Source of the DNA: a virus
Virus record (IMG/VR): IMGVR_UViG_3300034072_000758
Location: 427,030-491,029 of that record
Strand: one strand, 5' to 3'
Length of the DNA stretch: 64,000 nucleotides
Shown in pieces: positions 1,857-52,689 of this stretch. The notes under the pieces were generated by a model. It had not been told where the DNA came from. It worked only from the letters and a program-made list of their open reading frames with translations, and did no database searches. Within the stretch, counting starts at the first letter, position 1. Each line of letters begins with the position of its first letter. The position numbers were made by a program, and so were the translations under genes.

Positions 1857-1894
1857 CATGTCCACGGTAACCATTCCGTAATGCGAAAGGCCCT

Positions 1895-1920: not shown

Positions 1921-1992
1921 ATTTCCCAACAAAATAAATTGACTTGAAAATCTTCTTTGTGCGATGATCGTTCATCAGTATAAGAGAGTATC

Positions 1993-2295: not shown

Positions 2296-2701
2296 TGACG
2301 CGAAAAAAGGTGACGCTCCGTCTCAGTATAGCATTGGTATGCTATATGGTTACGGTACGCCGCTGACGCCGGACTTTTCCGAAGCAATCTTCTGGTTTGA
2401 AAAAGCCAGAGAACAGGATCACGCTGAGGCCATTTATAATCTCGGTGCGATTTATCAGTTCGAAGAGAACTTCAAAAATCTGGAAATTGCTAATCAGTAT
2501 TTCGAAGAAGCTGCCAAGCTGAAACACGATGTCGCTGCGTACAATCTCGGTCTGAACTATATGACCGGCCACGGAGTTCGTAAGGATGACGAGAAGGCGA
2601 AGTATTGGTTCGAGCAAGCCATTTTGTTTGGCAATAAGGTTGCGGTAACTATGTTGGCGCAATTGAAAACAAATCCAACTTTTTATAAAAGAGTTGCTTG
2701 A
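2273..2701 (+). CDS. Sel1-like repeat (SLR/TPR-like) protein
   Basis: Repeated Sel1 signatures (YSIGMLYGYG...AIFWFEKAREQDHAEAIYNLGAIY; AAYNLGLNYMTGHGVRKDDEKAKYWFEQA). The track start at 2249 is TTG, so the ATG at 2273 is preferred. Confidence 0.65.
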   Translation: MKLEKLISDAKKGDAPSQYSIGMLYGYGTPLTPDFSEAIFWFEKAREQDHAEAIYNLGAIYQFEENFKNLEIANQYFEEAAKLKHDVAAYNLGLNYMTGHGVRKDDEKAKYWFEQAILFGNKVAVTMLAQLKTNPTFYKRVA

Positions 2702-2726
2702 CAGATCAAAACTGTTGATATATAAC
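2698..2726 (+). promoter_or_regulatory. sigma70-like promoter TTGACA-N17-TATAAC driving the large non-coding region
   Basis: TTGACA at 2698-2703 overlaps the stop codon of the upstream gene. TATAAC lies at 2721-2726. Confidence 0.5.
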
Positions 2727-2732
2727 CTTAGA

Positions 2733-4047: not shown

Positions 4048-4120
4048 GGGGCCATAGCTCAGTTGGTAGAGCACCTGCTTTGCAAGCAGGATGTCGTCGG
4101 TTCGACTCCGACTGGCTCCA
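4048..4120 (+). tRNA. tRNA-Ala (anticodon UGC)
   Basis: Acceptor GGGGCCA/TGGCTCC (G3-U70 present), D-arm GCTC-AGTTGGTA-GAGC, anticodon stem CCTGC/GCAGG with loop TTTGCAA, T-arm GTCGG-TTCGACT-CCGAC. Confidence 0.75.
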
Positions 4121-4237
4121 CTCGAATTTTGTGATAGATCGCCCCATAGGGGATATGCGTCCGTCACAGAGTTCCGGGGTTTGGGCCGCTTCCTCTCAAA
4201 AAGAAAAAGCGGTCGCTTAAGTTTTCGGAGTTGCGTA

Positions 4238-4567
4238 ATGAACCGGGCAGAAGCATTACTTGGCACAAAGCCAAAAGTTCCTAATCAGGTTCCTCCCGAA
4301 GCTAAACAACATATTCATGAATGCATCAAAAACGCCATGAATAATGGCGACACATCCTGCTATATCAATGTCCACGATCACCGTGTTCCTATCAGCACAC
4401 TCGATTTGGAAGTCATTGAAGTATACCTCAAAGCCGAAGGATATAGATGTCATGTCCATTCCTATACGGATGAACATGGCAGCGATGATGTTCTAGTCAT
4501 CAAATGGGGAGAAACTTTCTTCGAAAGAGTGAAAAGATGGTTCCGTTCTATCCAAGAAAAAAACTAA
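4238..4567 (+). CDS. hypothetical protein
   Basis: ORF 4091..4567 trimmed to the first ATG after the tRNA (MNRAEALLGTK...). Confidence 0.5.
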   Translation: MNRAEALLGTKPKVPNQVPPEAKQHIHECIKNAMNNGDTSCYINVHDHRVPISTLDLEVIEVYLKAEGYRCHVHSYTDEHGSDDVLVIKWGETFFERVKRWFRSIQEKN

Positions 4568-4848
4568 AAGTATATTACGGATACTACTACTCCAAAAGTC
4601 CCCAACCGGTGCGCGGGCGAAGATATTTGGGTTGGTATCGCCGGAATGCAACACGCTTTCATCGTATTTACCGCGTAGTAGAAAGCGTTGCTACGCTTGA
4701 TCCACCAATTCGTCCCGGTCTTCCCAGAATGTATTTTACGGTCAAGTATTCCGGTCGTGATTGGGATTACGGTGAATTGAATTGGACCAAAGAACAGGCC
4801 GATGAACGTTGGCTGAACAGAAGAAACGAAGGTGCTTGTTTCACCTGA
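4537..4848 (+). CDS. hypothetical basic protein (start uncertain, 4504 or 4537)
   Basis: ORF 4504..4848 overlaps the upstream gene. Arg/Tyr rich. Confidence 0.35.
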   Translation: MVPFYPRKKLKVYYGYYYSKSPQPVRGRRYLGWYRRNATRFHRIYRVVESVATLDPPIRPGLPRMYFTVKYSGRDWDYGELNWTKEQADERWLNRRNEGACFT

Positions 4849-4965
4849 TATGGGCTGCTTGGAGTTTAGCTGGGTTCGAATCCCGCTCGATCCACCATTA
4901 AGATTGGGTCGATGTCACCGGAAGACAAGAGCGGGTTCGAGTCCCGTCCAGTCCACACCCTTTAT
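4849..4965 (+). other. two tRNA 3'-half-like fragments (T-arm + 3' acceptor + CCA/CAC: ...GGGTTCGAATCCCGCTCGATCCACCA and ...GGGTTCGAGTCCCGTCCAGTCCACA) with no matching 5' acceptor strand
   Basis: T-loop consensus GGTTCGAWTCC seen twice. No complementary acceptor 5' strand upstream. Confidence 0.4.
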
Positions 4966-5038
4966 GGGGCCATAGCTCAATTGGTAGAGCGCAAGTATGG
5001 CATACTTGAGGTCGCCGGTTCGATCCCGGCTGGCTCCA
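4966..5038 (+). tRNA. tRNA-Ala (anticodon GGC)
   Basis: Acceptor GGGGCCA/TGGCTCC, D-arm GCTC-AATTGGTA-GAGC, anticodon stem CAAGT/ACTTG with loop ATGGCAT, T-arm GCCGG-TTCGATC-CCGGC. Confidence 0.7.
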
Positions 5039-5116
5039 CATTTATTAGTTGACAGCTTGACAACAAAATAAAACCTGTTACTCTCCTGAATAACTCTAAT
5101 ATCAGGAGAATAAAAT

Positions 5117-6016
5117 ATGGTACATCAACCCATGCGTGGTCCGCAAATCGGCTCCGTTTCCGACTACGACGACTATGACGATTATGGCTATTCGGAAATG
5201 GATAGCTATGGCATCGTTCGTCGGCATCGCAGCCAAAAAGAAAATATCAACAATTCTAAATGGGTTGATCCTATTCACGGTGGTCGCCGAACGAAACAGT
5301 CCGATCCCTATTACTTCTCCGAATATTTCCTTTTCGGTCGTCACGGCGACATCAAGCAAAAGGGCGTCACTGGCGATTATAGTGATCGTCTGAGTGAATG
5401 GGATCGTCTTCGTTATGACTTTCTGATGCGCAAGCATGTGCCGAATGGTTGGATGCGCGCAAGTCCTAGCCAACTCGAACCCTTCCTGACCGAATATTTC
5501 GGGGTCTTCAAGAACATCAAGGTGGTGGCTCTGGCCGAAGGCTGTAAAATGAGCGGCTATAACTACTTCATCGTCTGGTATACATACGAAGAAGTGGCCG
5601 AACGCTCGAAGCCGAAGATCAAGCGCAAGATTGAGGCTGAAAGGAACAAGCTCAAGGAAGCCGAAGATCAAGGCTACCGCAATTCCGATCTGGGGATGTA
5701 CCTTAAGTCGGCGGTGCGGGCGCTGGTCAGCGCGGCTCGTCCTATGTTCGGTGGCAAGCCCAAGGTTCACTGGCGCATTGACGCTCGTATCAAGCGTCTG
5801 GAAGCCATGACTATCGATGATCGCAAGCGCAAGAAGGGTGAGTTCAACAAACTCGCTAAGCGCATCCTCAAGCTGCTGAACGACACCAAGGCGGACCTGA
5901 CCGCTCAAAAGTCGTACTACAGTTCCGATCTGGACAAGGCGATTGAAACCGTCGAAACCAAGATCAAGGACTACAATACGCCGGGGTATAACCCATACGC
6001 GCGGGGCGCAGAATAA
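5117..6016 (+). CDS. hypothetical protein (299 aa, N-terminal DYDDYDDYGY acidic tract, basic coiled-coil C-terminal half)
   Basis: Long ORF with RBS AGGAG 8 nt upstream. The antisense ORF 5102..5908 is rejected. Confidence 0.6.
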   Translation: MVHQPMRGPQIGSVSDYDDYDDYGYSEMDSYGIVRRHRSQKENINNSKWVDPIHGGRRTKQSDPYYFSEYFLFGRHGDIKQKGVTGDYSDRLSEWDRLRYDFLMRKHVPNGWMRASPSQLEPFLTEYFGVFKNIKVVALAEGCKMSGYNYFIVWYTYEEVAERSKPKIKRKIEAERNKLKEAEDQGYRNSDLGMYLKSAVRALVSAARPMFGGKPKVHWRIDARIKRLEAMTIDDRKRKKGEFNKLAKRILKLLNDTKADLTAQKSYYSSDLDKAIETVETKIKDYNTPGYNPYARGAE

Positions 6017-6453
6017 TGATCGTCGGCGAGTTCAAAACCGCAACCGGCATGACGACCATCTTTCATGATGCGGATGGTTATCATGTCAACGCCGCTGGTC
6101 GAGAAGACATTCACGGGGCGATGACGGCGGATGCGGTCGTTCGTTATCTTTGCGGTGCTTTGATCAGCGCCAATCACAAGCTGGGTATTGACCAGTTTGA
6201 AGATATGGAAGCGTTCGAAGAAACCGATCCGGGGATCGAAGCTGCCGCCTCCTTCTATCGTCAATTGGGGGATGGTGACGAAGTTTATTCATTTGTTCCT
6301 CTAAACGAAGTGTGTATCCGTGGTACTCCCGAACGGCTGAAAGCTCTAGGGGAGTTTCTGATCGAAAGTTCAACTATGAGTGACGATCACGCACATTTCC
6401 AAACTCAGGGCGGCGTCAAGCCCGATTTCGTTGTGGTTAAGTCAGATGAATGA
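6016..6453 (+). CDS. hypothetical protein
   Basis: 145-aa ORF. ATGA overlap with the upstream gene. Confidence 0.55.
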   Translation: MIVGEFKTATGMTTIFHDADGYHVNAAGREDIHGAMTADAVVRYLCGALISANHKLGIDQFEDMEAFEETDPGIEAAASFYRQLGDGDEVYSFVPLNEVCIRGTPERLKALGEFLIESSTMSDDHAHFQTQGGVKPDFVVVKSDE

Positions 6454-6826
6454 AAAACTGGAAGCCAAACTTGCTTGGGAAAAACTCTGTAAGCAAGCAA
6501 ATACCAATCCGGCCTATACGCGCGACGTTGTGTTATCGACGGATAACAGTTTCCGCATCGCGGCTAAATCGGCGGTCGATGATCGATACGCGGATTGCGT
6601 ATCAATAGAAATTTCGCATGAGGGTGATCCCCAGATGGGTTGGTCTTATGCTCATTTCTCACCGGCCCGTGCGCGTCTGTTCGCTCACATGCTAATCGAA
6701 CGTGCCGATGCGCTGGAAGCAAAAAACGGCGTAGAGATCATCGATACCGAAAGCCTACAAGATCAGGCGCATCGTCTTCGGGTGGCGGTTGATGAAAAAC
6801 GCCGAAAGCTGGGATTGTTGAAATGA
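6446..6826 (+). CDS. hypothetical protein
   Basis: ORF 6380..6826 trimmed to the ATG at 6446 (ATGAATGA overlap with the upstream stop). Confidence 0.5.
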   Translation: MNEKLEAKLAWEKLCKQANTNPAYTRDVVLSTDNSFRIAAKSAVDDRYADCVSIEISHEGDPQMGWSYAHFSPARARLFAHMLIERADALEAKNGVEIIDTESLQDQAHRLRVAVDEKRRKLGLLK

Positions 6827-7026
6827 AACATTCCGACTTTGAACTCAACATGGAGTTTCGATGCGGTGGTAGTGATTGGAAAGTCACCGACATCGGAACT
6901 CGCACAATTATTGCCATCAAACTTACGGGTACGATCAACGACCTAACGTGGCTTGCTGGTCCGCCATACGCTCTCGAAGAAGTAGTCTTCGATGAAAATG
7001 ATTTCGCAGGATGTGAAGTAATATGA
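6823..7026 (+). CDS. hypothetical protein
   Basis: 67-aa ORF coupled by an ATGA overlap. Confidence 0.45.
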   Translation: MKHSDFELNMEFRCGGSDWKVTDIGTRTIIAIKLTGTINDLTWLAGPPYALEEVVFDENDFAGCEVI

Positions 7027-7346
7027 AATTGATTATTCTTCAAGCTGAACACGCAGAAGCCGCAATCGCTACTCGCATCGTAACTCTGGAATACGAGTCA
7101 AAAGAAGCTGTCGATAAGTTGATCGAAGGCTACCTAGCATCGGCCCCCAAGCCGTTTACTTGGCGCGAATACCGAGCGACTACGCCGGAAGAACGAGCCA
7201 AAAGAAAAGAAGAACGGGAAAATTGGGCTAAAGCTCAACCCGATCTTCAAATCGGCAAAGCGAAATTCCCAGCCGAAGTTCTTGTAAGGGCTTCTACTTA
7301 CGTGTATGATCTGAATGCGTTCTTCGAAGAGTTTAAGGAAGGTTAA
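7023..7346 (+). CDS. hypothetical protein
   Basis: 107-aa ORF coupled by an ATGA overlap. Confidence 0.5.
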   Translation: MKLIILQAEHAEAAIATRIVTLEYESKEAVDKLIEGYLASAPKPFTWREYRATTPEERAKRKEERENWAKAQPDLQIGKAKFPAEVLVRASTYVYDLNAFFEEFKEG

Positions 7347-7349
7347 TTC

Positions 7350-7619
7350 ATGTACCACTTCATCGCCCTACTTCTCACGTTTCTTCACGTGATCATCGCC
7401 ATCATTGTTGGTGGTATCGGTTCAGTTTTGTTCATGTTCAGGACAAAAAATTTCCGCGATCTGACCGCAATGATTCTGGTCATCGGTGGCATCTATATGC
7501 TGATCGGGGCTATTTTCTTCCCGGTGTTTGCTATCGGTTCGTTCGCCCTGTTCTGGCCAGTTTACATCGTCACCCTGTATCTTCTTCACATCAAGAAAGA
7601 AGACAATACGCTCACATAA
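7350..7619 (+). CDS. small membrane protein (2-3 TM helices)
   Basis: Hydrophobic sequence MYHFIALLLTFLHVIIAIIVGGIGSVLFMF...IGGIYMLIGAIFFPVFAIGSFALFWPVYIV. The stop overlaps the tRNA-Thr start. Confidence 0.55.
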   Translation: MYHFIALLLTFLHVIIAIIVGGIGSVLFMFRTKNFRDLTAMILVIGGIYMLIGAIFFPVFAIGSFALFWPVYIVTLYLLHIKKEDNTLT

Positions 7620-7685
7620 GTTCAATTGGTAGACTATCTCCTTGGTACGGAGGCAGTAGGAGTTCGAGTCTCCTTGTGAGCACCA
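7610..7685 (+). tRNA. tRNA-Thr (anticodon GGU), CCA encoded
   Basis: Acceptor GCTCACA/TGTGAGC, anticodon stem TCTCC/GGAGG with loop TTGGTAC, T-arm AGGAG-TTCGAGT-CTCCT, 3' ACCA. Confidence 0.7.
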
Positions 7686-7881
7686 TAATCGTTATTCACA
7701 AGGATCACTCAAATGATGATATTCACTTGGCTATTGTCAGCGGCTTCGCTAAACAATCAGGCACATCTTAGAAATTTGCCGAAGACCAAGATCGACCCAG
7801 CACCGAATGAGCATCCGGTTACGGAAACACCTCCAAAAAAGAAAAAGAGAGCTTGGTTCTCTTTGTTGGACACCGACTGAT

Positions 7882-9216
7882 TCACACGAACCAGTCGGTT
7901 CCTTCTTTTGTATCCAATAGGGTGACGCCGCGTTCGGCCAAAGCATTCCGAATGATGTCCGCCATGACCCAATCTTTACCGGCTCTTGCCAGATTGCGGT
8001 CGTAGATCAGACCTTCGATGATTTCACGCTCGTCCTTAGACACATTCTTGAACCAATCCTCGTATCGATGATTGAGGACACCAAGCAATTGCGCAGCCGC
8101 AACGAACTCGGACTTGGTTTCCGGCTTCATCAAACTGGATAATTCAGCCAGAGCCAAAGGCGTATTCAGATCATCATGAAGATGATCGAGGAATGATTGT
8201 GGCACCGGAACTTCGTGCGTGGTGAGCTTTGCCGTCTGGCGCAGGAAGGCATAGTAGCCATCCAGCCGGTTCTTCGTGGTTTGAAGAAGTTCTGGGGTCC
8301 AATTCAAGACGGTTCTATAATGCGCTGAGAGCAACGCCAAGCGCACGATTTCCCCATCCCATTCCTTTACGAGATCGTGGACCAACACGACATTCCCTAC
8401 CGACTTGGACATCTTGCCGTTATTGGTCAGGAACTCGTTATGCATCCAGTAGCGGGAATACTCGTGATTATGGCCGCAATGACCTTGAGCACATAACCCC
8501 TGAGAGATTTCATTCTCATGGTGCGGAAAGGCCAAGTCTATACCCCCGCCATGAATGTCGATAGGAAGACCCAGATTGGCTTCAATCATGGCCGAGCACT
8601 CAATGTGCCAACCGGGGCGTCCAGCACCCCACGGACTTTCCCAAGCCGGTTCACCGGGCTTCGACGGTTTCCATAGTACGAAGTCTTTTTGGTCGCGCTT
8701 ATACGACACCTCACCGATCCGGCTTTCGGCTTCGTCATCCGAACCATTGGAGAAAACACCATGATCCGGGTATGAATCCACGTCAAACAAAACGTGACCT
8801 TCCGACACATACGCATGGCCGTTCTTGATCAGACGCACAATCATGTCGATCATGGCCGGGATATGGTTGGTCGCCAGAGGTTCAATGGGAGGCCGTAGGA
8901 CGCCCACGGAGGCCATGTCTTGACGATATATGTCCGTGTAGCGTTCAGCAATAACCTTGTAGTCCACGCCCTCCTGAGAGGCTTTCTGGATGATTTTATC
9001 ATCGATGTCGGTGATGTTCCGAGCATAGATGACATGGTTATTTCCATACTTGTGGCGGAGAACACGAAACAGCAAATCGAATACGACCGCTGGGCGGGCA
9101 TTGCCGATATGTGCGTGATTATATACCGTAGGACCACAGACGTACATCGTAATCCGGTTAGGATTTCGAGGAACGAAAGTTTCTTTGGATCGAGTTTTGC
9201 TGTTGAATATCTTCAT
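7882..9216 (-). CDS. cysS: cysteinyl-tRNA synthetase (class I)
   Basis: HIGH motif (NHAHIGNARP), KMSKS motif (GKMSKSVGN), and a length typical of bacterial CysRS. Start trimmed to MKIFNSK with an AGGA RBS. The upstream in-frame extension to 9255 cannot be excluded. Confidence 0.85.
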   Translation of the reverse strand: MKIFNSKTRSKETFVPRNPNRITMYVCGPTVYNHAHIGNARPAVVFDLLFRVLRHKYGNNHVIYARNITDIDDKIIQKASQEGVDYKVIAERYTDIYRQDMASVGVLRPPIEPLATNHIPAMIDMIVRLIKNGHAYVSEGHVLFDVDSYPDHGVFSNGSDDEAESRIGEVSYKRDQKDFVLWKPSKPGEPAWESPWGAGRPGWHIECSAMIEANLGLPIDIHGGGIDLAFPHHENEISQGLCAQGHCGHNHEYSRYWMHNEFLTNNGKMSKSVGNVVLVHDLVKEWDGEIVRLALLSAHYRTVLNWTPELLQTTKNRLDGYYAFLRQTAKLTTHEVPVPQSFLDHLHDDLNTPLALAELSSLMKPETKSEFVAAAQLLGVLNHRYEDWFKNVSKDEREIIEGLIYDRNLARAGKDWVMADIIRNALAERGVTLLDTKEGTDWFV

Positions 9217-9261
9217 AGATAAATTCCTAACATAACCAATGACTGTTGGCAACACTATGGC

Positions 9262-9289
9262 TTGACAATATTAATTACCATGCTAGACT
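9262..9289 (+). promoter_or_regulatory. sigma70-like promoter TTGACA-N16-TAGACT
   Basis: Seen directly upstream of the gene at 9320, with a GGAG RBS. Confidence 0.5.
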
Positions 9290-9319
9290 AGAATTAGAAA
9301 ATATTGGAGATTAGTTTAC

Positions 9320-9571
9320 ATGATGACCCTCGACATGGCTGAAATGGAATACGATTTGAGTAAGAAAGCCCTGACTTTCTACATGGATCGTGGCGAAGCT
9401 TGGCCAAGCGAAGTCGAAGTGGTATCGCATCATACGGGTCGTGTCATCCGTTTTGTTTACGATTTGGAACTGGCTCAACAAAATGATTTCTGGGACGGCG
9501 AACTGACCGCCTTAAAACCAACCGAAGAATGTAATGTGAAAACCCTCTGGCTGGTGCCGTGTTTCCGATGA
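9320..9571 (+). CDS. hypothetical protein
   Basis: 83-aa ORF downstream of the promoter. Confidence 0.5.
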   Translation: MMTLDMAEMEYDLSKKALTFYMDRGEAWPSEVEVVSHHTGRVIRFVYDLELAQQNDFWDGELTALKPTEECNVKTLWLVPCFR

Positions 9572-9891
9572 CTGATGCCGAATATGAAAAATTAGCTCGC
9601 CGGGTCGCACACCTTATGGGGGACGACGATGCGGCTGCAAAGAGCCTGTGGCGGATGGCTGCGGGCTGTCGAGAACGCGCTGTAGAAGTCGTCCGCGCCT
9701 TCGGACAACATCTTAGTGCCGGTCTGGCCAAAACTTTAATTGAGACCGATAATGATTTCTGCGATTATGTTTGCGCATATGTCATCAACGGTGGTCTTGA
9801 AGTCGAATGGTTGTATTGGAGCCGCGATGAATATGACGCCGATCATGATCTCAAAAGAATAGCCGCGATAGCCAAGAAAGCACTGATATGA
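9559..9891 (+). CDS. hypothetical protein
   Basis: 110-aa ORF overlapping its neighbours by a few nt. Confidence 0.5.
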   Translation: MFPMTDAEYEKLARRVAHLMGDDDAAAKSLWRMAAGCRERAVEVVRAFGQHLSAGLAKTLIETDNDFCDYVCAYVINGGLEVEWLYWSRDEYDADHDLKRIAAIAKKALI

Positions 9892-10184
9892 ATCAGCCAT
9901 TGTACAAAGTAGTAATGCGGGCAGAAGAAATCAAAGATGGCTCAACCGTCACCAAAAAGACGGGTGAAGTTCAGTATACGTTCAAGAACAAATTGTCGCT
10001 GTACCAAACTCAAACCAAAGGGGAACCACCCATTCTTCCGGTCATTATCGAAGGATACTTCCTCGTTGGTGCTAGAGGACAAATCAATCAGATCAAAGGC
10101 GATCTGGAACTGATGATGACCATGACCGCCGAAGAGTTGTTGTGGTTTGCTCAAGAACTTTGTGATGAAGAGGAAGACAAATGA
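9888..10184 (+). CDS. hypothetical protein
   Basis: 98-aa ORF with an ATGA overlap. Confidence 0.5.
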   Translation: MNQPLYKVVMRAEEIKDGSTVTKKTGEVQYTFKNKLSLYQTQTKGEPPILPVIIEGYFLVGARGQINQIKGDLELMMTMTAEELLWFAQELCDEEEDK

Positions 10185-10363
10185 AATTTTGTGTGACGGC
10201 TGAAAACGATCAAGGTCTAACCTTTCAGGTTACATTCCATAATCCCAATTGGAATGGCGCAACGGCTGCTGCGCAGCGCGCCGTAAATAAGGCGGTGAAG
10301 GCCGATCCTTTCCATAAAAAGCATGGACCGTTCTTGGCCAAGAATATCGACGTGACAGCATGA
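10181..10363 (+). CDS. hypothetical protein
   Basis: 60-aa ORF with an ATGA overlap. Confidence 0.4.
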   Translation: MKFCVTAENDQGLTFQVTFHNPNWNGATAAAQRAVNKAVKADPFHKKHGPFLAKNIDVTA

Positions 10364-11130
10364 AGCGAATCAACCCCATAACCAATAGTGCGCAGGATAA
10401 GAGAGATTTTAAGATCAGAACGTTCTCTGATCTTAATCACTATCTCGACACGTTTTTGGGCGGGGAGATTGCGCGTTGTGCGAAGGCTACGGTCTTCTTC
10501 ATGATTAATCGCATGTTGGATCAACCTGCCACCAAACCATTTAAACCCTTCACAATGGGTGATATTTTACGAGTGACCGGGGAAGACATCGATGTCGTGG
10601 TCCCTTCGACAAGCTGGCTTCAAAATCTCGACATTCTTGTGTTTGATCGGTCGATTGGTGACAATGATCCAATCACCCTGAAATATAGCACTCTTTTTAA
10701 AGACTTATATCGAAATAACGATCTGGGCGCTGGGCCGAAACCAGTACCAACCCCACCTATTATCCCCCGGTTGTTGGCGGCAATTGATGGCACGGTTGAC
10801 CACGAGCACAATGTCAGAGAAAAAGAAGATCGGGTATTTACTAAGACAATCCATCGTTTTCTTAATACCAACAGACTTTTTCTTCAATACTCTCTGACCA
10901 AATGTGCCGGTAAAGAAGATAGTCATATATCCAATGATCGCAAACCAATGGTTGTTATTGAATTTATTCATAGCTATGTTGGAATTATAGGACACACTTG
11001 GTTTACGGGCGCGGGCAAAGTATTAGCTCCCGAAACCAATGTTTATTACAAGGTTCGTCCCAAAAAAGGGTCTTCGCTCGAAGAGGCCGAAGAAGAACTT
11101 ATGTTGCTGATGATGGAGGAAAGAATATGA
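10360..11130 (+). CDS. hypothetical protein (256 aa)
   Basis: Long ORF. The antisense ORFs 10620..10871 and 10705..10995 are rejected. Confidence 0.55.
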   Translation: MKRINPITNSAQDKRDFKIRTFSDLNHYLDTFLGGEIARCAKATVFFMINRMLDQPATKPFKPFTMGDILRVTGEDIDVVVPSTSWLQNLDILVFDRSIGDNDPITLKYSTLFKDLYRNNDLGAGPKPVPTPPIIPRLLAAIDGTVDHEHNVREKEDRVFTKTIHRFLNTNRLFLQYSLTKCAGKEDSHISNDRKPMVVIEFIHSYVGIIGHTWFTGAGKVLAPETNVYYKVRPKKGSSLEEAEEELMLLMMEERI

Positions 11131-11291
11131 AAATAGCTATGATTGTCGCGGCTATAGCTTTGTGCTATACCGGCAACAACACGACCAAAGAAACCACCGA
11201 TCTTGAGAACGCGCAATGGGTTCAGGGTCTTATGAATATTTTGACTGCTGTGAAATATGAAACTCCGTCCGTTACGCGATGTGATTCTTGA
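11127..11291 (+). CDS. small putative lipoprotein (MKIAMIVAAIALC lipobox-like signal)
   Basis: ORF 10998..11291 trimmed to the ATG at 11127 with a GGAGGA RBS. Signal peptide ends in ALC. Confidence 0.45.
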   Translation: MKIAMIVAAIALCYTGNNTTKETTDLENAQWVQGLMNILTAVKYETPSVTRCDS

Positions 11292-11955
11292 AGGCTTAGG
11301 TGAGGCTTGGAAATATTATCCAAAGAACCTCGCCTTAAAGAAATGCTTTCAGATCATCGGTGAAATTGAAAGCTCCAAAAAGACGGGGTTCGATGACCTG
11401 TGCCAAGCCATACAATCTTTACCGGATGGCAGCATTAAAATTTCTCGTTGTCTCGACTATTACAAGACCGTAACTTTCGATCTTAACGCAGTAGAAAGCG
11501 GCGAGATCGATTTATATAGAGCTATGGTGGAAGATGACACTTGGCACTCTGTTTTTGATTTACACATGATTAAAAATCACGCCAGTATCATCCCAGCCCC
11601 ATCGGTATCCAGAAAGCTGATTAATTTTGGGTATTGTCTTCATTGTTGTTTGAAGGCTACCACAACAAAATACGCAAGTATGTTATGTCGAGTTATAGAA
11701 GCGCTTTCGAACGAAAATTGGAAGATGTTTACTTACCATTGCCAACATGGCTATAACAACGGCATCCCGGCATCAAGATCAATATTAAGCTGGCTGCGCT
11801 ACGAGTATCAAGTAGGCCAGTATGGTCCCGATTACGATCTCTTAGCCGATGTTATAGCGATAATGGACCGGAACACTTCGTTGGCTATAGATAAATGGTT
11901 CGACCAATGCCTCATTGAGACGCGGGAGAGCGACCATAATGCAAGTGATAAATGA
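11257..11955 (+). CDS. hypothetical Cys-rich protein (232 aa)
   Basis: Long ORF with several CxxC/HC pairs (GYCLHCCLK, YHCQHG). Confidence 0.5.
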   Translation: MKLRPLRDVILEGLGEAWKYYPKNLALKKCFQIIGEIESSKKTGFDDLCQAIQSLPDGSIKISRCLDYYKTVTFDLNAVESGEIDLYRAMVEDDTWHSVFDLHMIKNHASIIPAPSVSRKLINFGYCLHCCLKATTTKYASMLCRVIEALSNENWKMFTYHCQHGYNNGIPASRSILSWLRYEYQVGQYGPDYDLLADVIAIMDRNTSLAIDKWFDQCLIETRESDHNASDK

Positions 11956-12361
11956 TCTCGTACTGCGGCGGCTCTATAAATTCTGGCTTAATAAAGACGG
12001 TGACGGCTTCATCAAAACTGGTTGATATGCTTTTCCGATTGACTGTTCGGAAAAGCATATAAGGATGAATCTTATTACCTTGGTCGATTTCGCGTTTCAA
12101 CTCTGAGCGGATTTTGAGAATTGCGGTCGAATCATATAGATAATCCTGTCGTAACAAGATGCCATTTTCCACGTCAAACCTGAACATTCTCGACATGGCT
12201 TGAACCGGGTCTTTGTGTCCAGCAAACATATTTACCGGGGCAGTCATAGGCTCATCAAACAAATCTTCTAGCTGATCAATAGGCATAATCTTGGCGCTGG
12301 AATATTGTAGCCTGAGATTTGCCATATTGATGTTTAATTTGTACGCGACGTATGAGGTCAT
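11912..12361 (-). CDS. hypothetical protein (contains a perfect 14-bp inverted repeat at 12024-12060 inside the coding region)
   Basis: ORF 11912..12475 trimmed to the Met that forms an ATGA overlap with the upstream gene. Confidence 0.45.
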   Translation of the reverse strand: MTSYVAYKLNINMANLRLQYSSAKIMPIDQLEDLFDEPMTAPVNMFAGHKDPVQAMSRMFRFDVENGILLRQDYLYDSTAILKIRSELKREIDQGNKIHPYMLFRTVNRKSISTSFDEAVTVFIKPEFIEPPQYEIIYHLHYGRSPASQ

Positions 12362-12579
12362 TGATAAGCACCACTGGTAATGGACGCCAGAAGACGCATA
12401 ACGGCCTCTGGATGCGTCTTCATTGCGTCGATGGGGCGAAGATACCCAAGGGCGCGTTTCTCGGTGTACGCCCATTCTTTAGCCCAAGAATCGATGTCGA
12501 AGTTCTTATGTTCGTCATCTTTGTCCGCATTTTCCCAGACCGCACGAGCTTGAGCTATGATTTGTTCAAGGTCAGTCAC
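12358..12579 (-). CDS. hypothetical protein
   Basis: 73-aa ORF coupled to its neighbours. Confidence 0.45.
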   Translation of the reverse strand: MTDLEQIIAQARAVWENADKDDEHKNFDIDSWAKEWAYTEKRALGYLRPIDAMKTHPEAVMRLLASITSGAYQ

Positions 12580-12760
12580 GGAGCACCAATGGGGCTTCCG
12601 ACGCTTGTTCTATGCGATACGCCTTCTCATGCCAGAACTCGAACATTTTAAGATCGTTCTTGGTCAAGGCGTGACGGAGTTCATCTATGTACCCTTGCCT
12701 CAACTCAGGAGGAAGGCTCATAAAATCGGCGACGGTTAATCTGAATGATAATGTGCTCAT
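12572..12760 (-). CDS. hypothetical protein
   Basis: 62-aa ORF, first gene of the minus-strand block. Confidence 0.4.
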   Translation of the reverse strand: MSTLSFRLTVADFMSLPPELRQGYIDELRHALTKNDLKMFEFWHEKAYRIEQASEAPLVLRD

Positions 12761-12804
12761 ATCACGAGCATATCAAAGATAGTTAATAAATGGCAATTTT
12801 AAAA

Positions 12805-12833
12805 TTGATTTATCGAGACCATATTTGATATAT
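12805..12833 (+). promoter_or_regulatory. sigma70-like promoter TTGATT-N17-ATATAT
   Basis: Seen directly in the AT-rich divergent intergenic region. Confidence 0.4.
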
Positions 12834-12840
12834 TTACTAC

Positions 12841-13128
12841 ATGACAACAGATACAGATTTCCGAAAGATCATCGCCGAAGCGTTCAAGAATGCTGACGCC
12901 AAACCAGAATATGAACGCGCCGAATACCTGATCAGGGAATTGACCGGCGTGATTGCTTTGAAGCCGGATTTGGAAAGCTTCAACGACTGTGTTATGGGGA
13001 ATTTCAACATTCGCCTTGTGATGAATAGAGCCGAATGGTATACCCCCGCGTTACGAGTGTCTGAATACATGGCCGCGCTCTTTACCGAGACGGCTAGGAT
13101 TAAAGACGAGTGGGAAAAGTCGGAATAA
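12841..13128 (+). CDS. hypothetical protein
   Basis: 95-aa ORF. Confidence 0.5.
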   Translation: MTTDTDFRKIIAEAFKNADAKPEYERAEYLIRELTGVIALKPDLESFNDCVMGNFNIRLVMNRAEWYTPALRVSEYMAALFTETARIKDEWEKSE

Positions 13129-13166
13129 CTTTTCCACAGGTTTCAGTCCTTATTGTTATATTATGG

Positions 13167-13195
13167 TTGACTTTGATACTAAATAGAATTATAGT
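13167..13195 (+). promoter_or_regulatory. sigma70-like promoter TTGACT-N17-TATAGT upstream of a tRNA trio
   Basis: Seen directly about 25 nt upstream of tRNA-Asn. Confidence 0.5.
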
Positions 13196-13220
13196 CACCA
13201 AATAGACCGTAAGGTCATGT

Positions 13221-13296
13221 TCCTCGGTAGCTCAGTTGGTAGAGCGCCTGACTGTTAATCAGGATGTCACAGGTTCGAGTCCTGTCCGAGGAGCCA
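13221..13296 (+). tRNA. tRNA-Asn (anticodon GUU), CCA encoded
   Basis: Acceptor TCCTCGG/CCGAGGA, anticodon stem CCTGA/TCAGG with loop CTGTTAA, T-arm ACAGG-TTCGAGT-CCTGT, 3' GCCA. Confidence 0.75.
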
Positions 13297-13352
13297 TTAA
13301 AATTCGTGCGTTGTTTACCGCGTTGTAGCGGAGTAATAAATACGCACTATAT

Positions 13353-13424
13353 GGCCGATTAGCTCAGTGGTAGAGCGTCTCGTTTACACCGAGAATGTCG
13401 GGAGTTCGACCCTCTCATCGGCTA
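13353..13424 (+). tRNA. tRNA-Val (anticodon UAC)
   Basis: Acceptor GGCCGAT/ATCGGCT, anticodon stem TCTCG/CGAGA with loop TTTACAC, T-arm GGGAG-TTCGACC-CTCTC. Confidence 0.7.
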
Positions 13425-13448
13425 CCCATCCTTCGGATGGTTTTCTTT
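13425..13448 (+). terminator. rho-independent terminator (CCATCC-TTCG-GGATGG + TTTTCTTT)
   Basis: UUCG tetraloop hairpin plus T-run. Confidence 0.6.
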
Positions 13449-13509
13449 ATATAAAAATAATTTTGCGGTTGCGAAATTATAAATAATGTATTAAGATGTC
13501 CTTAGATAT

Positions 13510-13581
13510 GCGGGTGTAACTCAGCGGTAGAGTGTCAGCCTTCCAAGCTGTTCGTCGCAGGTTCGATCCCTGTCACCCGCT
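13510..13581 (+). tRNA. tRNA-Gly (anticodon UCC)
   Basis: Acceptor GCGGGTG/CACCCGC, D-arm ACTC-AGCGGTA-GAGT, anticodon loop CTTCCAA, T-arm GCAGG-TTCGATC-CCTGT. Confidence 0.7.
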
Positions 13582-13600
13582 CTCTACAAAGGACATCAAG

Positions 13601-50383: not shown

Positions 50384-50460
50384 TTGGCAGGGGTGGAGAG
50401 ATTCGAACTCCCATCGCGCAGTTTTGGAGACTGCCGCTCTAACCGTTGGAGCTACACCCC
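50384..50460 (-). tRNA. tRNA-Trp (anticodon CCA), CCA encoded
   Basis: Minus strand: acceptor AGGGGTG/CACCCCT, D-arm GCTC-CAACGGTTA-GAGC, anticodon stem GCAGT/ACTGC with loop CTCCAAA, T-arm GGGAG-TTCGAAT-CTCTC. Confidence 0.75.
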
Positions 50461-50473
50461 TATAGGCGATCAA

Positions 50474-50752
50474 TCACTTGACCGCAAAGGAAGAAATGAG
50501 CTTACAACTCGTTTTTACAAACCCTACATAACGAGGGTCCGAGAAACGGTCGAAGTCATTCAAATAATCGAAGTCCGCCTTGTCGATTTCATACACATGA
50601 TATTCGACGGCTGGTGAATGCTGTTCTACAACCGTAAAACTACGGTCGCTTCTCAAGCCACGTTCTTTATCTGCGATCTTCACAGCTTCAATCGGCCTTA
50701 AGTTATTCGTCAAGGCGACGATATGATTTTGATTCAAAACAGCGGTACGCAT
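50474..50752 (-). CDS. hypothetical protein
   Basis: 92-aa ORF between tRNAs. Confidence 0.45.
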   Translation of the reverse strand: MRTAVLNQNHIVALTNNLRPIEAVKIADKERGLRSDRSFTVVEQHSPAVEYHVYEIDKADFDYLNDFDRFSDPRYVGFVKTSCKLISSFAVK

Positions 50753-50812
50753 ACTATTACTCCTTACCCGACATTAATAATTTATTTACATTATCAAAGT
50801 CAATTTTATTTT

Positions 50813-50903
50813 TGGAGGACGTGGTGGGACTCGAACCCACGGTGGTCTATGTTACGACAACAGGTTAAGAGCCTGTCCCTCTCGCCGCTGAGGTGACACG
50901 TCC
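50813..50903 (-). tRNA. atypical type-II (long variable arm) tRNA with lysine anticodon CUU; chimeric derivative of the canonical tRNA-Lys(CUU) at 51517-51593
   Basis: 5' GGACGTG-TCA-CCTC-AGCGGCGA-GAGG-G-ACAGG-CTCTTAA-CCTGT-[TGTCGTAACATAGACCACC]-GTGGG-TTCGAGT-CCCAC-CACGTCC-T-CCA. Acceptor stem, T-arm and anticodon loop are identical to the canonical Lys(CUU). It adds a Ser/Tyr-like D-arm and a 19-nt variable arm. Confidence 0.55.
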
Positions 50904-50997
50904 GTATCAAAAATGTAGGGAGATCGGGTTCACCACAATCATGCTGGTACACAAGGTCGTCACATGATTAGTAACCCACTAGGGCATGGCTCCAGCT

Positions 50998-51074
50998 TGG
51001 TGAACACGGTGGGGGTCGAACCCACGACCTACTGATTAAAAGTCAGTTGCTCTACCTACTGAGCTACGTGTTCG
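50998..51074 (-). tRNA. tRNA-Lys (anticodon UUU), canonical, CCA encoded
   Basis: GAACACG-TA-GCTC-AGTAGGTA-GAGC-A-ACTGA-CTTTTAA-TCAGT-AGGTC-GTGGG-TTCGACC-CCCAC-CGTGTTC-A-CCA. Confidence 0.75.
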
Positions 51075-51154
51075 TGCGCCCTGTCGGACTCGAACCGACA
51101 CTCGTTAGAAGCAGATTTTAAGTCTGCCGGGTCTACCAATTTCCCCAAGGGCGC
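51075..51154 (-). tRNA. tRNA-Leu (anticodon UAA), type II
   Basis: Acceptor GCGCCCT/AGGGCGC, Leu-type D-arm, anticodon stem GCAGA/TCTGC with loop CTTAAAA, 13-nt variable arm, T-arm GTCGG-TTCGAGT-CCGAC. Confidence 0.7.
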
Positions 51155-51204
51155 TTAGGTACTTTTCTTGTAAACATCAAAGATGATTTTGGCAACATCT
51201 TTGT

Positions 51205-51280
51205 TGGCGAGGATAGAAGGATTCGAACCTCCGACACATGCGTTCGAAGCGCATTGCTCTGTCCACTGAGCTATATCCCC
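51205..51280 (-). tRNA. tRNA-Arg (anticodon UCG), CCA encoded
   Basis: GGGGATA-TA-GCTC-AGTGGACA-GAGC-A-ATGCG-CTTCGAA-CGCAT-GTGTC-GGAGG-TTCGAAT-CCTTC-TATCCTC-G-CCA. Confidence 0.7.
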
Positions 51281-51281
51281 G

Positions 51282-51366
51282 TGCGCCGAGAGGGATTCGA
51301 ACCCTCATACCATTACGGTGTCCGTTTTTGAAACGGGTGCGTCTACCAAAGTTCCGCCACCAGCGC
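51282..51366 (-). tRNA. tRNA-Leu (anticodon CAA), type II
   Basis: Acceptor GCGCTGG/TCGGCGC (two G-U pairs), D-arm GCG-GAACTTTGGTAGA-CGC, anticodon loop TTCAAAA, T-arm GAGGG-TTCGAAT-CCCTC. Confidence 0.65.
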
Positions 51367-51417
51367 ATAGAAAACCTTTAATATAGATCGTTATCCACAT
51401 CCATATTAAAGGTTATG

Positions 51418-51501
51418 AGGATGTAGAGGGACTCGAACCCCCGATGGTCTTTTGACAACGGATTAAAAGCCCGTCCCTCTCGCCGCTGAGGTGATACATC
51501 C
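51418..51501 (-). tRNA. atypical type-II (long variable arm) tRNA with lysine anticodon UUU
   Basis: 5' GGATGTA-TCA-CCTC-AGCGGCGA-GAGG-G-ACGGG-CTTTTAA-TCCGT-[TGTCAAAAGACCATC]-GGGGG-TTCGAGT-CCCTC-TACATCC-T. The 22-nt D-region TCACCTCAGCGGCGAGAGGGAC is identical to the other atypical tRNA. Confidence 0.55.
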
Positions 51502-51516
51502 ATAGTAGTATTTGTT

Positions 51517-51593
51517 TGGAGGACGTGGTGGGACTCGAACCCACAACATTCGGTTTAAGAGACCGACGCTCTAACCATTGTAGCTACACGTCC
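51517..51593 (-). tRNA. tRNA-Lys (anticodon CUU), canonical, CCA encoded
   Basis: GGACGTG-TA-GCTA-CAATGGTTA-GAGC-G-TCGGT-CTCTTAA-ACCGA-ATGTT-GTGGG-TTCGAGT-CCCAC-CACGTCC-T-CCA. Confidence 0.75.
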
Positions 51594-51610
51594 GTATCAA
51601 ACAAATACTG

Positions 51611-51683
51611 CGCGGATCAAGGGACTCGAACCCATAACCCTCTGTTTAGAAGACAGATGCTCGTCCAATTGAGCTTCATCCGC
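51611..51683 (-). tRNA. tRNA-Arg (anticodon UCU)
   Basis: Acceptor GCGGATG/GATCCGC (one mismatch), anticodon stem TCTGT/ACAGA with loop CTTCTAA, T-loop TTCGAGT. Stems are slightly imperfect. Confidence 0.55.
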
Positions 51684-51692
51684 ATAGTAGTG

Positions 51693-51778
51693 TGTGCCGA
51701 GGGGGACTCGAACCCCCACGCCCATTACAGGCCCCGGTTTCTGAAACCGGGAAGTCTACCAAATTTCATCATCAGCAC
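51693..51778 (-). tRNA. tRNA-Leu (anticodon CAG), type II
   Basis: Acceptor GTGCTGA/TCGGCAC, anticodon stem CCGGT/ACCGG with loop TTCAGAA, long variable arm, T-arm GGGGG-TTCGAGT-CCCCC. Confidence 0.65.
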
Positions 51779-51803
51779 GTATGCTCTTTCGAGCAAAGTC
51801 TTG

Positions 51804-51883
51804 TACGGGTGAGAGGACTCGAACCTCCACGATTGCTCGCTAGAACCTAAACCTAGTGCGTCTACCAGTTTCGCCACACCCGC
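51804..51883 (-). tRNA. tRNA-Leu (anticodon UAG), type II
   Basis: Acceptor GCGGGTG/CACCCGT, D-arm GCG-AAACTGGTAGA-CGC, anticodon stem CTAGG/TCTAG with loop TTTAGGT, T-arm GGAGG-TTCGAGT-CCTCT. Confidence 0.65.
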
Positions 51884-51884
51884 G

Positions 51885-51957
51885 CACTGCCAGTAGGACT
51901 CGAACCTACAACCTTCTGATTCGTAATCAGATGCTCATCCAGTTGAGCTATGGCAGC
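51885..51957 (-). tRNA. tRNA-Arg (anticodon ACG), copy 1
   Basis: GCTGCCA-TA-GCTC-AACTGGAT-GAGC-A-TCTGA-TTACGAA-TCAGA-AGGTT-GTAGG-TTCGAGT-CCTAC-TGGCAGT-G. Confidence 0.7.
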
Positions 51958-52081
51958 ATAAAGCAACAAGACGGTGGGGTTCGAACCCACAACCTTTCGG
52001 CTCCGACTTTGACCGCAACGGCTTTTCGCAAACCATTACGTGCGTGTGTATACCCATTCCACCACGCCAAGTTACTTCAAG
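51958..52081 (-). other. unassigned 124-nt spacer inside the tRNA array containing a T-arm-like palindrome GTGGGGTTCGAACCCAC but no foldable acceptor/anticodon arms
   Basis: Could not be folded into a cloverleaf on either strand. All other spacers in the array are 0-15 nt. Confidence 0.3.
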
Positions 52082-52166
52082 TGTCCATGAAAGGATTCGA
52101 ACCTTCACGCCCATTACAGGCAACAGCCTCTCAAGCTGCCGTGGCTACCAATTACACCACACGGAC
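52082..52166 (-). tRNA. tRNA-Leu (anticodon GAG), type II
   Basis: Acceptor GTCCGTG/CATGGAC, D-arm GTG-TAATTGGTAGC-CAC, anticodon stem GCAGC/GCTGT with loop TTGAGAG, T-arm GAAGG-TTCGAAT-CCTTT. Confidence 0.65.
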
Positions 52167-52175
52167 ATACGCAAG

Positions 52176-52292
52176 TGCGTTCGGGAGGATTCGAACCTCC
52201 AACCTCTATACTCGTTTGATCGTCATCCGACCAGTATAGCGGTATCCAACCCTCTAATGGGCTGGCGTGGCTACCAATTTCACCACGAGCGC
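52176..52292 (-). tRNA. atypical 117-nt Leu-like type-II tRNA with a non-canonical anticodon region (CCAGCCC-ATTAGA-GGGTTGG) and an oversized variable region; possible pseudogene, suppressor-like or insert-containing tRNA
   Basis: Acceptor GCGCTCG/CGAACGC (one C-A mismatch), Leu-type D-arm TG-GTG-AAATTGGTAGC-CAC, T-arm GGAGG-TTCGAAT-CCTCC. The middle section has a 7-bp stem, a 6-nt loop and a second 7-bp hairpin CTATACT...AGTATAG. Confidence 0.4.
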
Positions 52293-52302
52293 ATATTACG
52301 AG

Positions 52303-52377
52303 CGGGACTGGCAGGATTCGAACCTGCGACCTTCGGTTTCGTAGACCGGCGCTCTTATTCCGCTGAGCTACAGTCCC
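52303..52377 (-). tRNA. tRNA-Arg (anticodon ACG), copy 2 (different body)
   Basis: GGGACTG-TA-GCTC-AGCGGAATAA-GAGC-G-CCGGT-CTACGAA-ACCGA-AGGTC-GCAGG-TTCGAAT-CCTGC-CAGTCCC-G. Confidence 0.6.
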
Positions 52378-52404: not shown

Positions 52405-52440
52405 AACATAGAAAAACCCCCAAAAGCGTATTGCTCTTGG
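52405..52440 (-). terminator. hairpin CCCCCAAgagcaatacgcTTTTGGGGG + TTTTT (minus strand) separating the HNH gene transcript from the tRNA array; upstream of it are leader hairpins (52457-52487) and a probable tRNA-array promoter
   Basis: Seen directly. Confidence 0.45.
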
Positions 52441-52689
52441 GGGTTCGATCTTAACCGTTATGTTGTCTGCCTATTTCATCCGATGAAACGCAGACATGCG
52501 CGATTAAACCGTACCCCCTTTCGGGCGGCGGAGCCACTTTCTTAACAGTTTAAGGCGCAGAGCGAACATAACGAAAAATTCCTGTGATTTTGGGGCGAAA
52601 CCCCGTGTGGATTTCACCCTATCATTTCTATTTATCATCGGTCAACAAAAAAAGTTATTTTCCGATGAATTTTTTTGAACAAAGAAAAA

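Follow-up and report, generated by a model that had tools for sequence, protein, structure and literature searches.

Some transfer RNAs (tRNAs) encoded by phages counter host nucleases that cut the tRNAs of the cell. For the tRNA-Lys, tRNA-Thr and tRNA-Asn of phage T5, counter-defence against the PARIS system has been shown (PMC12409363), and a phage tRNA is reported to act against a retron effector (PMC11555353). The hypothesis that phages carry replacement tRNAs against anticodon nucleases was published in 2023 by van den Berg et al. (PMC10264068). Here, we describe an array of tRNA genes in a stretch of 64,000 nucleotides (nt) of viral DNA, hereafter the window (positions 427,030 to 491,029 of IMG/VR record IMGVR_UViG_3300034072_000758), in which two of the four tRNA-Lys genes encode tRNAs with a long variable arm. 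These two tRNAs had been missed in a first-pass annotation, which was made from the sequence alone. According to the textbook rule, a long variable arm is found in bacteria only on tRNAs for Leu, Ser and Tyr (and selenocysteine). The novelty lies in the long-armed Lys tRNAs; the array itself is ordinary and the defence idea has already been published.

The tRNA concerned, tRNA-Lys(UUU), is attacked by several nucleases. It is the target of PrrC (PMC10264068), is the top target of the bacterial Schlafen protein RorSlfn5 (PMC13056530), and is also cut by AriB, the nuclease of PARIS, which needs the sequence U36AAUC|A41 and, in the D loop, U16-U17 (PMC12409363). AriB reads positions 39-41, T5 escapes by changes at the sites that AriB reads, and other contacts with the tRNA body are implied (PMC12409363). 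What the window has in common with the T5-type anti-defence tRNAs is that phage copies of a targeted anticodon, Lys foremost, are encoded, that their sequences are non-canonical, and that several of them lie in one array. The T5-type escape variants carry a few substitutions in the anticodon stem-loop or the D loop of a class-I tRNA, whereas the candidate escape variants of the window have a wholly class-II body and lie beside a normal copy.

The long variable arm together with the anticodon of a class-I amino acid is a feature that the phage tRNAs share with the nematode nev-tRNAs (PMC3333845) and the bacterial allo-tRNAs (PMC7609411). The nev-tRNAs, unlike the phage tRNAs, are eukaryotic and charged with Leu (PMC3333845). 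The allo-tRNAs have acceptor/T stems of 8/4 or 9/3 base pairs (bp) and Ser or Ala identity (PMC7609411), whereas the phage long Lys tRNAs have 7/5. The phage tRNAs differ from both groups in their short variable arm of the Tyr type and in a discriminator base that follows the anticodon. Alloacceptor remolding, in which a duplicated tRNA gene shifts its anticodon or identity and keeps its body, is a similar process that has been described for mitochondria and for eukaryotic nuclear genomes (PMC4783518, PMC3923123). In the searchable literature, we found no report of remolding in phages or of a switch from a class-II to a class-I identity, and no description of class-II-shaped phage tRNAs for Lys or Asn, subscription journals not being covered. 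Long-armed genes are already annotated, without comment, in the GenBank records of cultured phages, including phiKZ and phiCbK.

Results

Structure of the Long-Armed Lysine tRNAs

The two long tRNAs are a tRNA-Lys(UUU) of 85 nt (51417..51501) and a tRNA-Lys(CUU) of 91 nt with an encoded CCA (50813..50903). Both genes lie on the minus strand, as do all genes of the array, and both are called by ARAGORN and recognized by the Rfam tRNA model RF00005 (49.3 and 52.1 bits, respectively). A tRNA was assigned to class II when its variable region exceeded 10 nt and contained a stem-loop between the anticodon and T arms, and was regarded as a tRNA-Lys when UUU or CUU was present in a canonical 7-nt loop with U33 and A37. 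Both long tRNAs show all of these features. They form a full cloverleaf with a 7-bp acceptor stem, a 6-bp anticodon stem and a 5-bp T stem, and have U73 as discriminator. Their anticodon loops are CUUUUAA in Lys(UUU) and CUCUUAA in Lys(CUU). The variable arm of each is a 3-bp stem with its loop, followed by four unpaired nt (GUC-AAAA-GAC then CAUC in Lys(UUU); GUC...GAC then CACC in Lys(CUU)).

The D arm of both tRNAs, CCUC-AGCGGCGA-GAGG, is of the Tyr type. Of the features of bacterial tRNA-Tyr, the D arm and the short variable arm with 3-4 unpaired 3' nt are present and the anticodon GUA and A73 are absent. The two arms resemble those of E. coli tRNA-Tyr. Of the usual features of bacterial tRNA-Lys, the long copies have neither A73 nor the class-I body; the short tRNA-Lys(CUU) of the array also has U73.

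Each long tRNA gene lies near a normal-shaped copy with the same anticodon, namely the class-I tRNA-Lys(CUU) (51517..51593; U73, encoded CCA, 65.2 bits) and the class-I tRNA-Lys(UUU) (50998..51073; A73, encoded CCA, 78 bits), both also called by ARAGORN. The two versions of each anticodon are strongly divergent and hence are not recent copies. The short and the long Lys(CUU) have the 5' flank, the first 8 nt and the last 28 nt in common and are wholly different in the middle, which points to either recombination between two scaffolds or selection for one acceptor and T arm. Positions 36-41, which include the AriB site, read UAAACC in the short Lys(CUU), as in T5, UAAUCC in the long Lys(UUU), UAACCU in the long Lys(CUU) and UAAUCA in the short Lys(UUU).

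A Conserved Long-Armed Family in Phages

The long Lys genes belong to a family that is conserved, structured and found almost only in phage or phage-like arrays. When phage records were searched with the long Lys(CUU), full-length matches annotated as “tRNA-Lys” were obtained in every phiCbK-like Caulobacter phage and several Brevundimonas phages. Two uncultured phages of about 640 kb gave partial matches, one to a long tRNA-Lys and the other to a long tRNA-Asn. Exact patterns of the D arm, which were too strict at the 3' end, gave no matches in IMG/VR. A degenerate pattern that admitted Lys and Asn equally gave 22 IMG/VR loci, mostly on contigs of 170-608 kb. Two more arrays came from a metagenome scan with a 19-nt D-arm pattern, for which seven of ten matches were due to chance and fell outside tRNAs, and Ruegeria and Rhodobacter phages were added by further searches. 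Lak megaphages, in which matches were also obtained, probably carry the scaffold as well. In 185,579 bacterial and archaeal species genomes, the degenerate pattern was present in just three places, each of them a dense tRNA array with a long tRNA-Lys and phage-like features; two of the three also contain short Leu tRNAs, like the phage arrays.

In total, 35 distinct long Lys sequences were collected from large-phage arrays, 33 of which have the loop CU[C/U]UUAA. An alignment of 20 homologues supports a cloverleaf with a variable arm: 95% of the cells at the paired positions of the whole structure are paired, and compensatory changes occur at 20 of the 24 pairs. None of 500 shuffles reached the observed value, and slid controls reached at most 50%. 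Pair 46-65 of the variable arm, for instance, is GC in ten homologues, AU in six and UA in two. The discriminator co-varies with the anticodon on the long scaffold: it is G73 in all eight Asn tRNAs, A73 in all six Tyr tRNAs, and U73 (21), A73 (12) or C73 (1) in the Lys tRNAs. The nearest relatives of the long Lys tRNAs, apart from Lys itself, are long Asn tRNAs, followed by Tyr and Ser tRNAs, and a phage tRNA-Tyr(GUA) in locus L044 has exactly the same D arm as the long Lys tRNAs.

The short and the long version of both Lys anticodons are found together in four divergent genomes: the window, L017, a 415-kb IMG/VR contig (L027) and a 578-kb contig (L029). In the phiCbK-like arrays examined, the long forms are the sole Lys tRNAs. 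Other tRNAs of the same arrays are also long, with anticodons for Thr, Ile, Met, Val, Cys, Asp, Trp and Arg. Among tRNAs for codons that start with A, long forms are overrepresented (11/81 versus 8/195, p = 0.008), in a sample whose members are not independent. The tRNA-Asn(GUU) of phiKZ (L046; NC_004629.1, 269557-269645) is a further example of the class-II shape, with 87 nt, G73 and the variable arm GGC-GAAA-GCC followed by CACC.

Some further observations concern these arrays. An HNH endonuclease gene adjoins the phiKZ tRNA-Asn(GUU), as an HNH gene (52721-53296) precedes the array of the window. In the Brevundimonas phages Bajun (L009) and Kabachok (L008), tRNA-Trp(CCA) measures 82-88 nt and has a long variable arm; each of the two phages also contains an unannotated long tRNA-Lys gene (4001-4089 in L009; 4001-4091 in L008). 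The reverse case, a Leu anticodon on a class-I body of 74-79 nt, is common in other large-phage arrays (L006, L012, L024, L026, L028, L031, L033 and L034) and is absent from the window.

Gene Content and Layout of the Array

Huge phages with many tRNAs and aminoacyl-tRNA synthetases were reportedly described by Al-Shayeb et al. in 2020. The phiCbK-like phages carry 23-28 tRNAs (PMC3556154). The array of the window resembles those of jumbo and huge phages in its dense layout on one strand, its grouping of isoacceptors and the location of translation genes elsewhere; we see no difference in kind, and the array is an ordinary member of the known class of huge-phage tRNA clusters.

It contains 14 tRNA genes (50385-52377, minus strand), on which ARAGORN and Infernal with RF00005 concur; all 14 cloverleaves score above the gathering score of 29 bits that served as the threshold for membership (39.6-78 bits). 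In the order of transcription, the genes are Arg(ACG) (52302..52377; 66.3 bits, no encoded CCA), the class-II Leu(GAG) (52081..52166; 48.5 bits), a second Arg(ACG) with a sequence far from that of the first (51884..51957; 66.3 bits), Leu(UAG) (51803..51883; 49.7 bits), Leu(CAG) (51692..51778; 39.6 bits), Arg(UCU) (51610..51683; 53.6 bits), the short Lys(CUU), the long Lys(UUU), Leu(CAA) (51281..51366; 44.4 bits), Arg(UCG) (51205..51280; 68.4 bits, encoded CCA), Leu(UAA) (51074..51154; 58.3 bits), the short Lys(UUU), the long Lys(CUU) and, after an open reading frame (ORF) of 92 amino acids (aa), Trp(CCA) (50385..50461; 58.3 bits, encoded CCA). CCA is encoded in five of the 14 genes. The array thus holds all five standard bacterial Leu anticodons, four Arg genes and four Lys genes. 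Five Leu and three to four Arg tRNAs are present because complete six-codon families need that many anticodons; ACG, UCG and UCU suffice to read the six Arg codons.

The first-pass annotation had correctly listed the anticodons (a complete Leu set, four Arg genes with ACG duplicated, and several Lys genes) and the clustering on one strand within 2 kb, and had counted 16 or 17 tRNAs instead of 14. Its statement that the genes are often separated by 0-1 nt was too strong: a single C lies between the discriminator of the upstream tRNA and the +1 base of the next at three of the 13 junctions (51884, 51281 and 51074), and the remaining spacers are 9-97 nt long. At the last of these junctions, it had rightly placed the discriminator of Leu(UAA) at 51075; the 5' end of the short Lys(UUU) is at 51073 and not, as it had stated, at 51074. 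The layout suggests that the array would be co-transcribed and the tRNAs then excised by RNase P and 3' trimming. At the three one-C junctions, cleavage of the downstream tRNA by RNase P would leave the upstream tRNA with an N73-C end, which the CCA-adding enzyme may finish.

A terminator-like hairpin of 14 pairs followed by a T run (52414..52446, minus strand) is located just upstream of the first tRNA gene and is the end of the transcription unit of the preceding HNH gene. The gap at 50904-50997 was considered as a hidden tRNA and rejected, as it has no structure (fold z = -0.6).

The 415-kb contig mentioned above contains three Arg, five Leu, one Ile, four Lys and one Trp tRNA genes in the same order as the window, the four Lys genes being a short and a long one for each anticodon. 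The ORF between the last Lys tRNA and tRNA-Trp (50474..50752, minus strand) has no match in Pfam or PHROG. A homologue (44% identity over 88 aa) occupies the same position, between the last Lys tRNA and tRNA-Trp, on the 578-kb contig (940-1200), which belongs to a distantly related megaphage and has the same set of four Lys tRNAs. A search for relatives by protein gave none for the 92-aa ORF, and for a neighbouring protein of 251 aa it gave two loci without tRNAs.

Two Abnormal tRNA-Like Elements

Two further elements of the array, both derived from tRNA-Leu, are not normal tRNAs. A tRNA-like RNA of 117 nt (52176..52292, minus strand) is recognized by Rfam at 34.8 bits under lax filters only, with the anticodon arm unaligned. 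Its acceptor stem (with one C-A mismatch), its Leu-type D arm and its T arm are intact, the anticodon arm is replaced by a 7-bp stem with the 6-nt loop AUUAGA, and the variable arm has 43 nt; together they form a very stable cloverleaf (-49.5 kcal/mol, z = -4.9). The 5' half matches the Leu(UAA) of L027, and no counterpart of the element was seen in the relatives. The element does not qualify as a normal decoder, and may be either a pseudogene of recent origin or an RNA that is processed but has no role in decoding. At a low threshold, ARAGORN calls it “Stop(tta) with intron”. The possibility that it is an ochre-suppressor tRNA was rejected in view of the 7-bp stem, the 6-nt loop and the presence of A instead of U before “UUA”, and is also countered by long ORFs that read through with the standard code.

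The other element (51965..52072, minus strand) separates Leu(GAG) from the second Arg(ACG). It is what remains of a decayed Leu-like tRNA, and ARAGORN detects it at a very low threshold only. Its T arm, GTGGGTTCGAACCCCAC, is intact, five of the seven acceptor pairs are left, and there is no usable anticodon arm (fold z = -1.1).

Other tRNAs, Synthetases and Codon Use

ARAGORN detected 25 tRNA genes in the window. Besides the array, there is a second, looser tRNA region (55..13582, plus strand) with 11 tRNAs for seven other amino acids (Pro twice, Thr twice, Gln, Val twice, Ala twice, Asn and Gly), all of normal length. A cysteinyl-tRNA synthetase (CysRS) gene (7882-9255, minus strand) lies in the same region, and genes for an aspartyl-tRNA synthetase (AspRS; 38237-40018, plus strand) and a seryl-tRNA synthetase (SerRS; 40450-41676, minus strand) are found elsewhere in the window; all three score above the NCBIfam equivalog cut-offs. 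The SerRS has an intact N-terminal arm, and its gene is 9 kb from the array.

The phage shows even codon use and employs all codons for Leu, Arg and Lys. CGU and CGC make up 62% of the Arg codons, Lys accounts for 5.9% of the residues, and the GC content is 46%. In view of the further tRNAs, the synthetases and this even codon use, the bias towards Leu, Arg and Lys that the first-pass annotation had reported is an artefact of viewing a single cluster of a near-complete set.

The Ligase-Like ORF and tRNA Repair

The tRNA repair system of phage T4, which counters PrrC, consists of the polynucleotide kinase-phosphatase Pnkp and the RNA ligase Rnl1. Its target, tRNA-Lys, is the tRNA that is also concerned in the window. 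The first-pass annotation had paired the array with a supposed RNA ligase encoded at 18714-19337 (plus strand). This ORF encodes a stand-alone ligase adenylation domain of 207 aa, with KLNG as motif I and no OB domain. Its profile matches are weak (Pfam PF01068, 27.4 bits; PHROG 114, “ATP-dependent DNA ligase”; TIGR02779, 21.7 bits against a cut-off of 227), and some of its homologues also touch PF09414. The family occurs on phage contigs of 0.2-1.1 Mb.

Sequence searches of the PDB with this protein gave no match. An AlphaFold model based on an alignment of 77 homologues had a predicted local distance difference test score (pLDDT) of 95; a model made from the single sequence (pLDDT 43) was unusable and was discarded. 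Among the top 50 Foldseek matches in the PDB, all were DNA-ligase adenylation domains (from LigIV, Lig1, LigIII, LigD, archaeal and African swine fever virus ligases) except two unrelated chains, and none was an RNA ligase. To judge by its structural neighbours, the protein would thus be a lone adenylation domain of the DNA-ligase type, which gives no positive support for tRNA repair. The window differs from T4 in that neither an RNA ligase nor a polynucleotide kinase-phosphatase was found among the proteins scanned, about 60 of the 86 ORFs. It does encode a nucleotidyltransferase of the RlaP family (“RNA repair pathway” DNA polymerase beta; 44889-45905, plus strand), near which no ligase or kinase partner was found.

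The Phage and Other Genes of the Window

The phage is a megaphage of at least 517 kb and a distant relation of the jumbo myoviruses of the Rak2/Atu_ph07 type. A protein identical to that of the ligase-like ORF is encoded on a contig of 516,805 bp, the neck protein shares about 40% identity with its counterparts in Agrobacterium phage Atu_ph07 and in Rak2-like jumbo myoviruses, and homologues of UvsX, UvsY and gp32 are encoded in the window. Over 20.6 kb, which include the long Lys(CUU), the sequence matches an independent Logan assembly at 100% identity. A near-identity search with the array among 50,697 phage records gave no match.

The auxiliary and T4-like replication genes of the window are usual for a very large myovirus. 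The former include an NAD synthetase (29034-30791), an SPFH/Band 7 protein (31326-32681) and an M16 peptidase (36299-37576), and the latter a UvsY/UvsX/gp32 module (55971-58913) and the large subunit of ribonucleotide reductase (61349-63994). A potassium-channel-like protein of 114 aa (49672-50016, minus strand) matches Pfam Ion_trans_2 (55 bits) and PHROG 14690; miniature channels of about this size are known from chloroviruses.

Discussion

We propose that the array is one block, grouped by amino-acid family, of a near-complete megaphage tRNA complement, and that its long-armed members are genuine Lys decoders that are spared by nucleases directed against tRNA-Lys; we would give this proposal as a whole an even chance of being correct. 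The block would read all six Leu codons, all six Arg codons, both Lys codons and the Trp codon, and would free the translation of the phage largely from the tRNA pool of the host. For each Lys anticodon there would be two suppliers, a tRNA with a class-I body and one with a class-II body, the latter presumably derived from tRNA-Tyr and equipped with a long variable arm. The altered D arm, the 6-bp anticodon stem and the variable arm would make the long forms poor substrates for nucleases that read the body of tRNA-Lys in addition to the anticodon loop, such as PrrC, AriB of PARIS and Schlafen-type enzymes, and Lys decoding could therefore continue once the normal-shaped tRNA-Lys of host and phage had been cut.

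The long forms would be charged with Lys because the anticodon dominates recognition by lysyl-tRNA synthetase (LysRS), their anticodon loops have the canonical form and the discriminator changes with the anticodon, and also because they are the sole phage Lys tRNAs in the phiCbK-like arrays examined. Both Lys anticodons of the array match those of host tRNA-Lys targeted by nucleases. The first-pass annotation had suggested that the array supplies replacement tRNAs against anticodon nucleases; the strongly divergent duplicates and the repeated targeting of Lys(UUU) fit this suggestion, while the compositional bias and the RNA ligase on which it also leaned do not hold. More tentatively, we consider it possible that the scaffold arose from tRNA-Tyr and spread in jumbo phages and megaphages as a general counter-defence, which would alter tRNA architecture instead of individual bases: nucleases that read the body would fail to cut such tRNAs, and synthetases that read the anticodon would still charge them. 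Its identities would include Lys, Asn, Thr, Ile, Met and others, and its carriers phiKZ, phiCbK, Ruegeria phages and probably Lak.

Several points weigh against nuclease-resistant Lys decoders. The short Lys(UUU) of the array retains UAAUCA, identical to the E. coli site that is cut by AriB of PARIS, and sensitive features have therefore not been removed everywhere. LysRS of class II approaches the tRNA from the side of the variable arm, so that a long arm could hinder it, and the usual discriminator of bacterial tRNA-Lys is A73 instead of the U73 of the long forms. No repair set of the Pnkp, Rnl1, Rnl2 or RtcB type was seen among the scanned window proteins (about 60 of the 86 ORFs). Finally, the even codon use and the duplication of Arg(ACG) also fit a simple effect on tRNA dosage.

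This last point leads to the main rival, neutral remolding of tRNA-Tyr combined with dosage. The array would simply top up the tRNAs of a phage with 46% GC in a host of different composition, and the long Lys tRNAs would be a by-product of neutral turnover: a Tyr gene would have been duplicated and its anticodon mutated, giving a product that LysRS happens to accept, and both shapes would add to the dosage for a common amino acid. Codon supply is the reading that was favoured by the authors of the phiCbK study (PMC3556154), and it agrees with a Lys content of 5.9% and with the duplication of Arg(ACG) where CGU and CGC predominate. The identities on the scaffold are near Tyr(GUA), those of Asn, Cys and Asp being one step away and those of Lys, Ile and Thr two steps; Tyr genes often adjoin long Asn or Lys genes; and the class-I-shaped Leu tRNAs of other arrays indicate that the bodies of phage tRNAs drift widely. 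Neutral remolding accounts for the identities on the scaffold, but less readily for the recurrence of both shapes with both Lys anticodons in four divergent genomes, since redundant neutral copies should vanish. It also sits uneasily with the predominance of Lys over Asn on the scaffold (33 versus 7 distinct sequences) under a pattern that admitted both equally, and with strong purifying selection and covariation across unrelated phage lineages. On balance, we regard pure supply as rather unlikely.

Two other explanations change what the odd shape is for. If the phage, or decay induced by the infection, destroyed the normal host tRNAs, the odd-shaped tRNAs might be spared or be read by factors of the phage. 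Decay of host tRNAs in lytic infection has indeed been cited as a driver of tRNA acquisition (PMC10264068), the scaffold is almost confined to phage or phage-like arrays, and the phage encodes synthetases of its own and the RlaP-family nucleotidyltransferase. We nevertheless consider such a distinction of self from non-self improbable: the window yielded no candidate for a tRNA nuclease, and the phage keeps normal-shaped Lys tRNAs, which a nuclease of this kind would cut. The remaining explanation, to which we attach very little probability, is that the long tRNAs are not ordinary decoders, being either miscoders charged according to their body with Tyr, Ser or Leu, perhaps by the phage SerRS, or uncharged decoys for nucleases. 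A class-II body with an anticodon other than for Leu, Ser or Tyr is the situation of the nev-tRNAs (PMC3333845) and allo-tRNAs, the phage encodes, 9 kb from the array, a SerRS whose N-terminal arm is intact, and the acceptor stem of the long Lys tRNAs begins with G1-C72, G2-C71 and A3-U70. Their variable arm is, however, of the Tyr type and not the long stem that SerRS binds, and U73 speaks against Tyr and Leu, which need A73, and against Ser, which needs G73. From this geometry and discriminator, charging of the long Lys tRNAs by the synthetases for Ser, Tyr or Leu was judged unlikely. Moreover, the discriminator co-varies with the anticodon, the phiCbK-like arrays examined hold only the long Lys forms, in stretches that have no annotated synthetase, and miscoding of Lys throughout the proteome would be very costly.

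The textbook rule on long variable arms is broken by these long-armed Lys and Asn tRNAs, a conserved and covarying family that is almost confined to phages. Cultured phage-host pairs carry such genes, and the long-armed scaffold may interest those who engineer orthogonal tRNAs. If the shape does protect against nucleases that target tRNA-Lys, this would help to explain why large phages carry two versions of the same anticodon, and would add a new level to the contest over tRNAs, fought by remodelling of the whole tRNA body rather than by point mutations.

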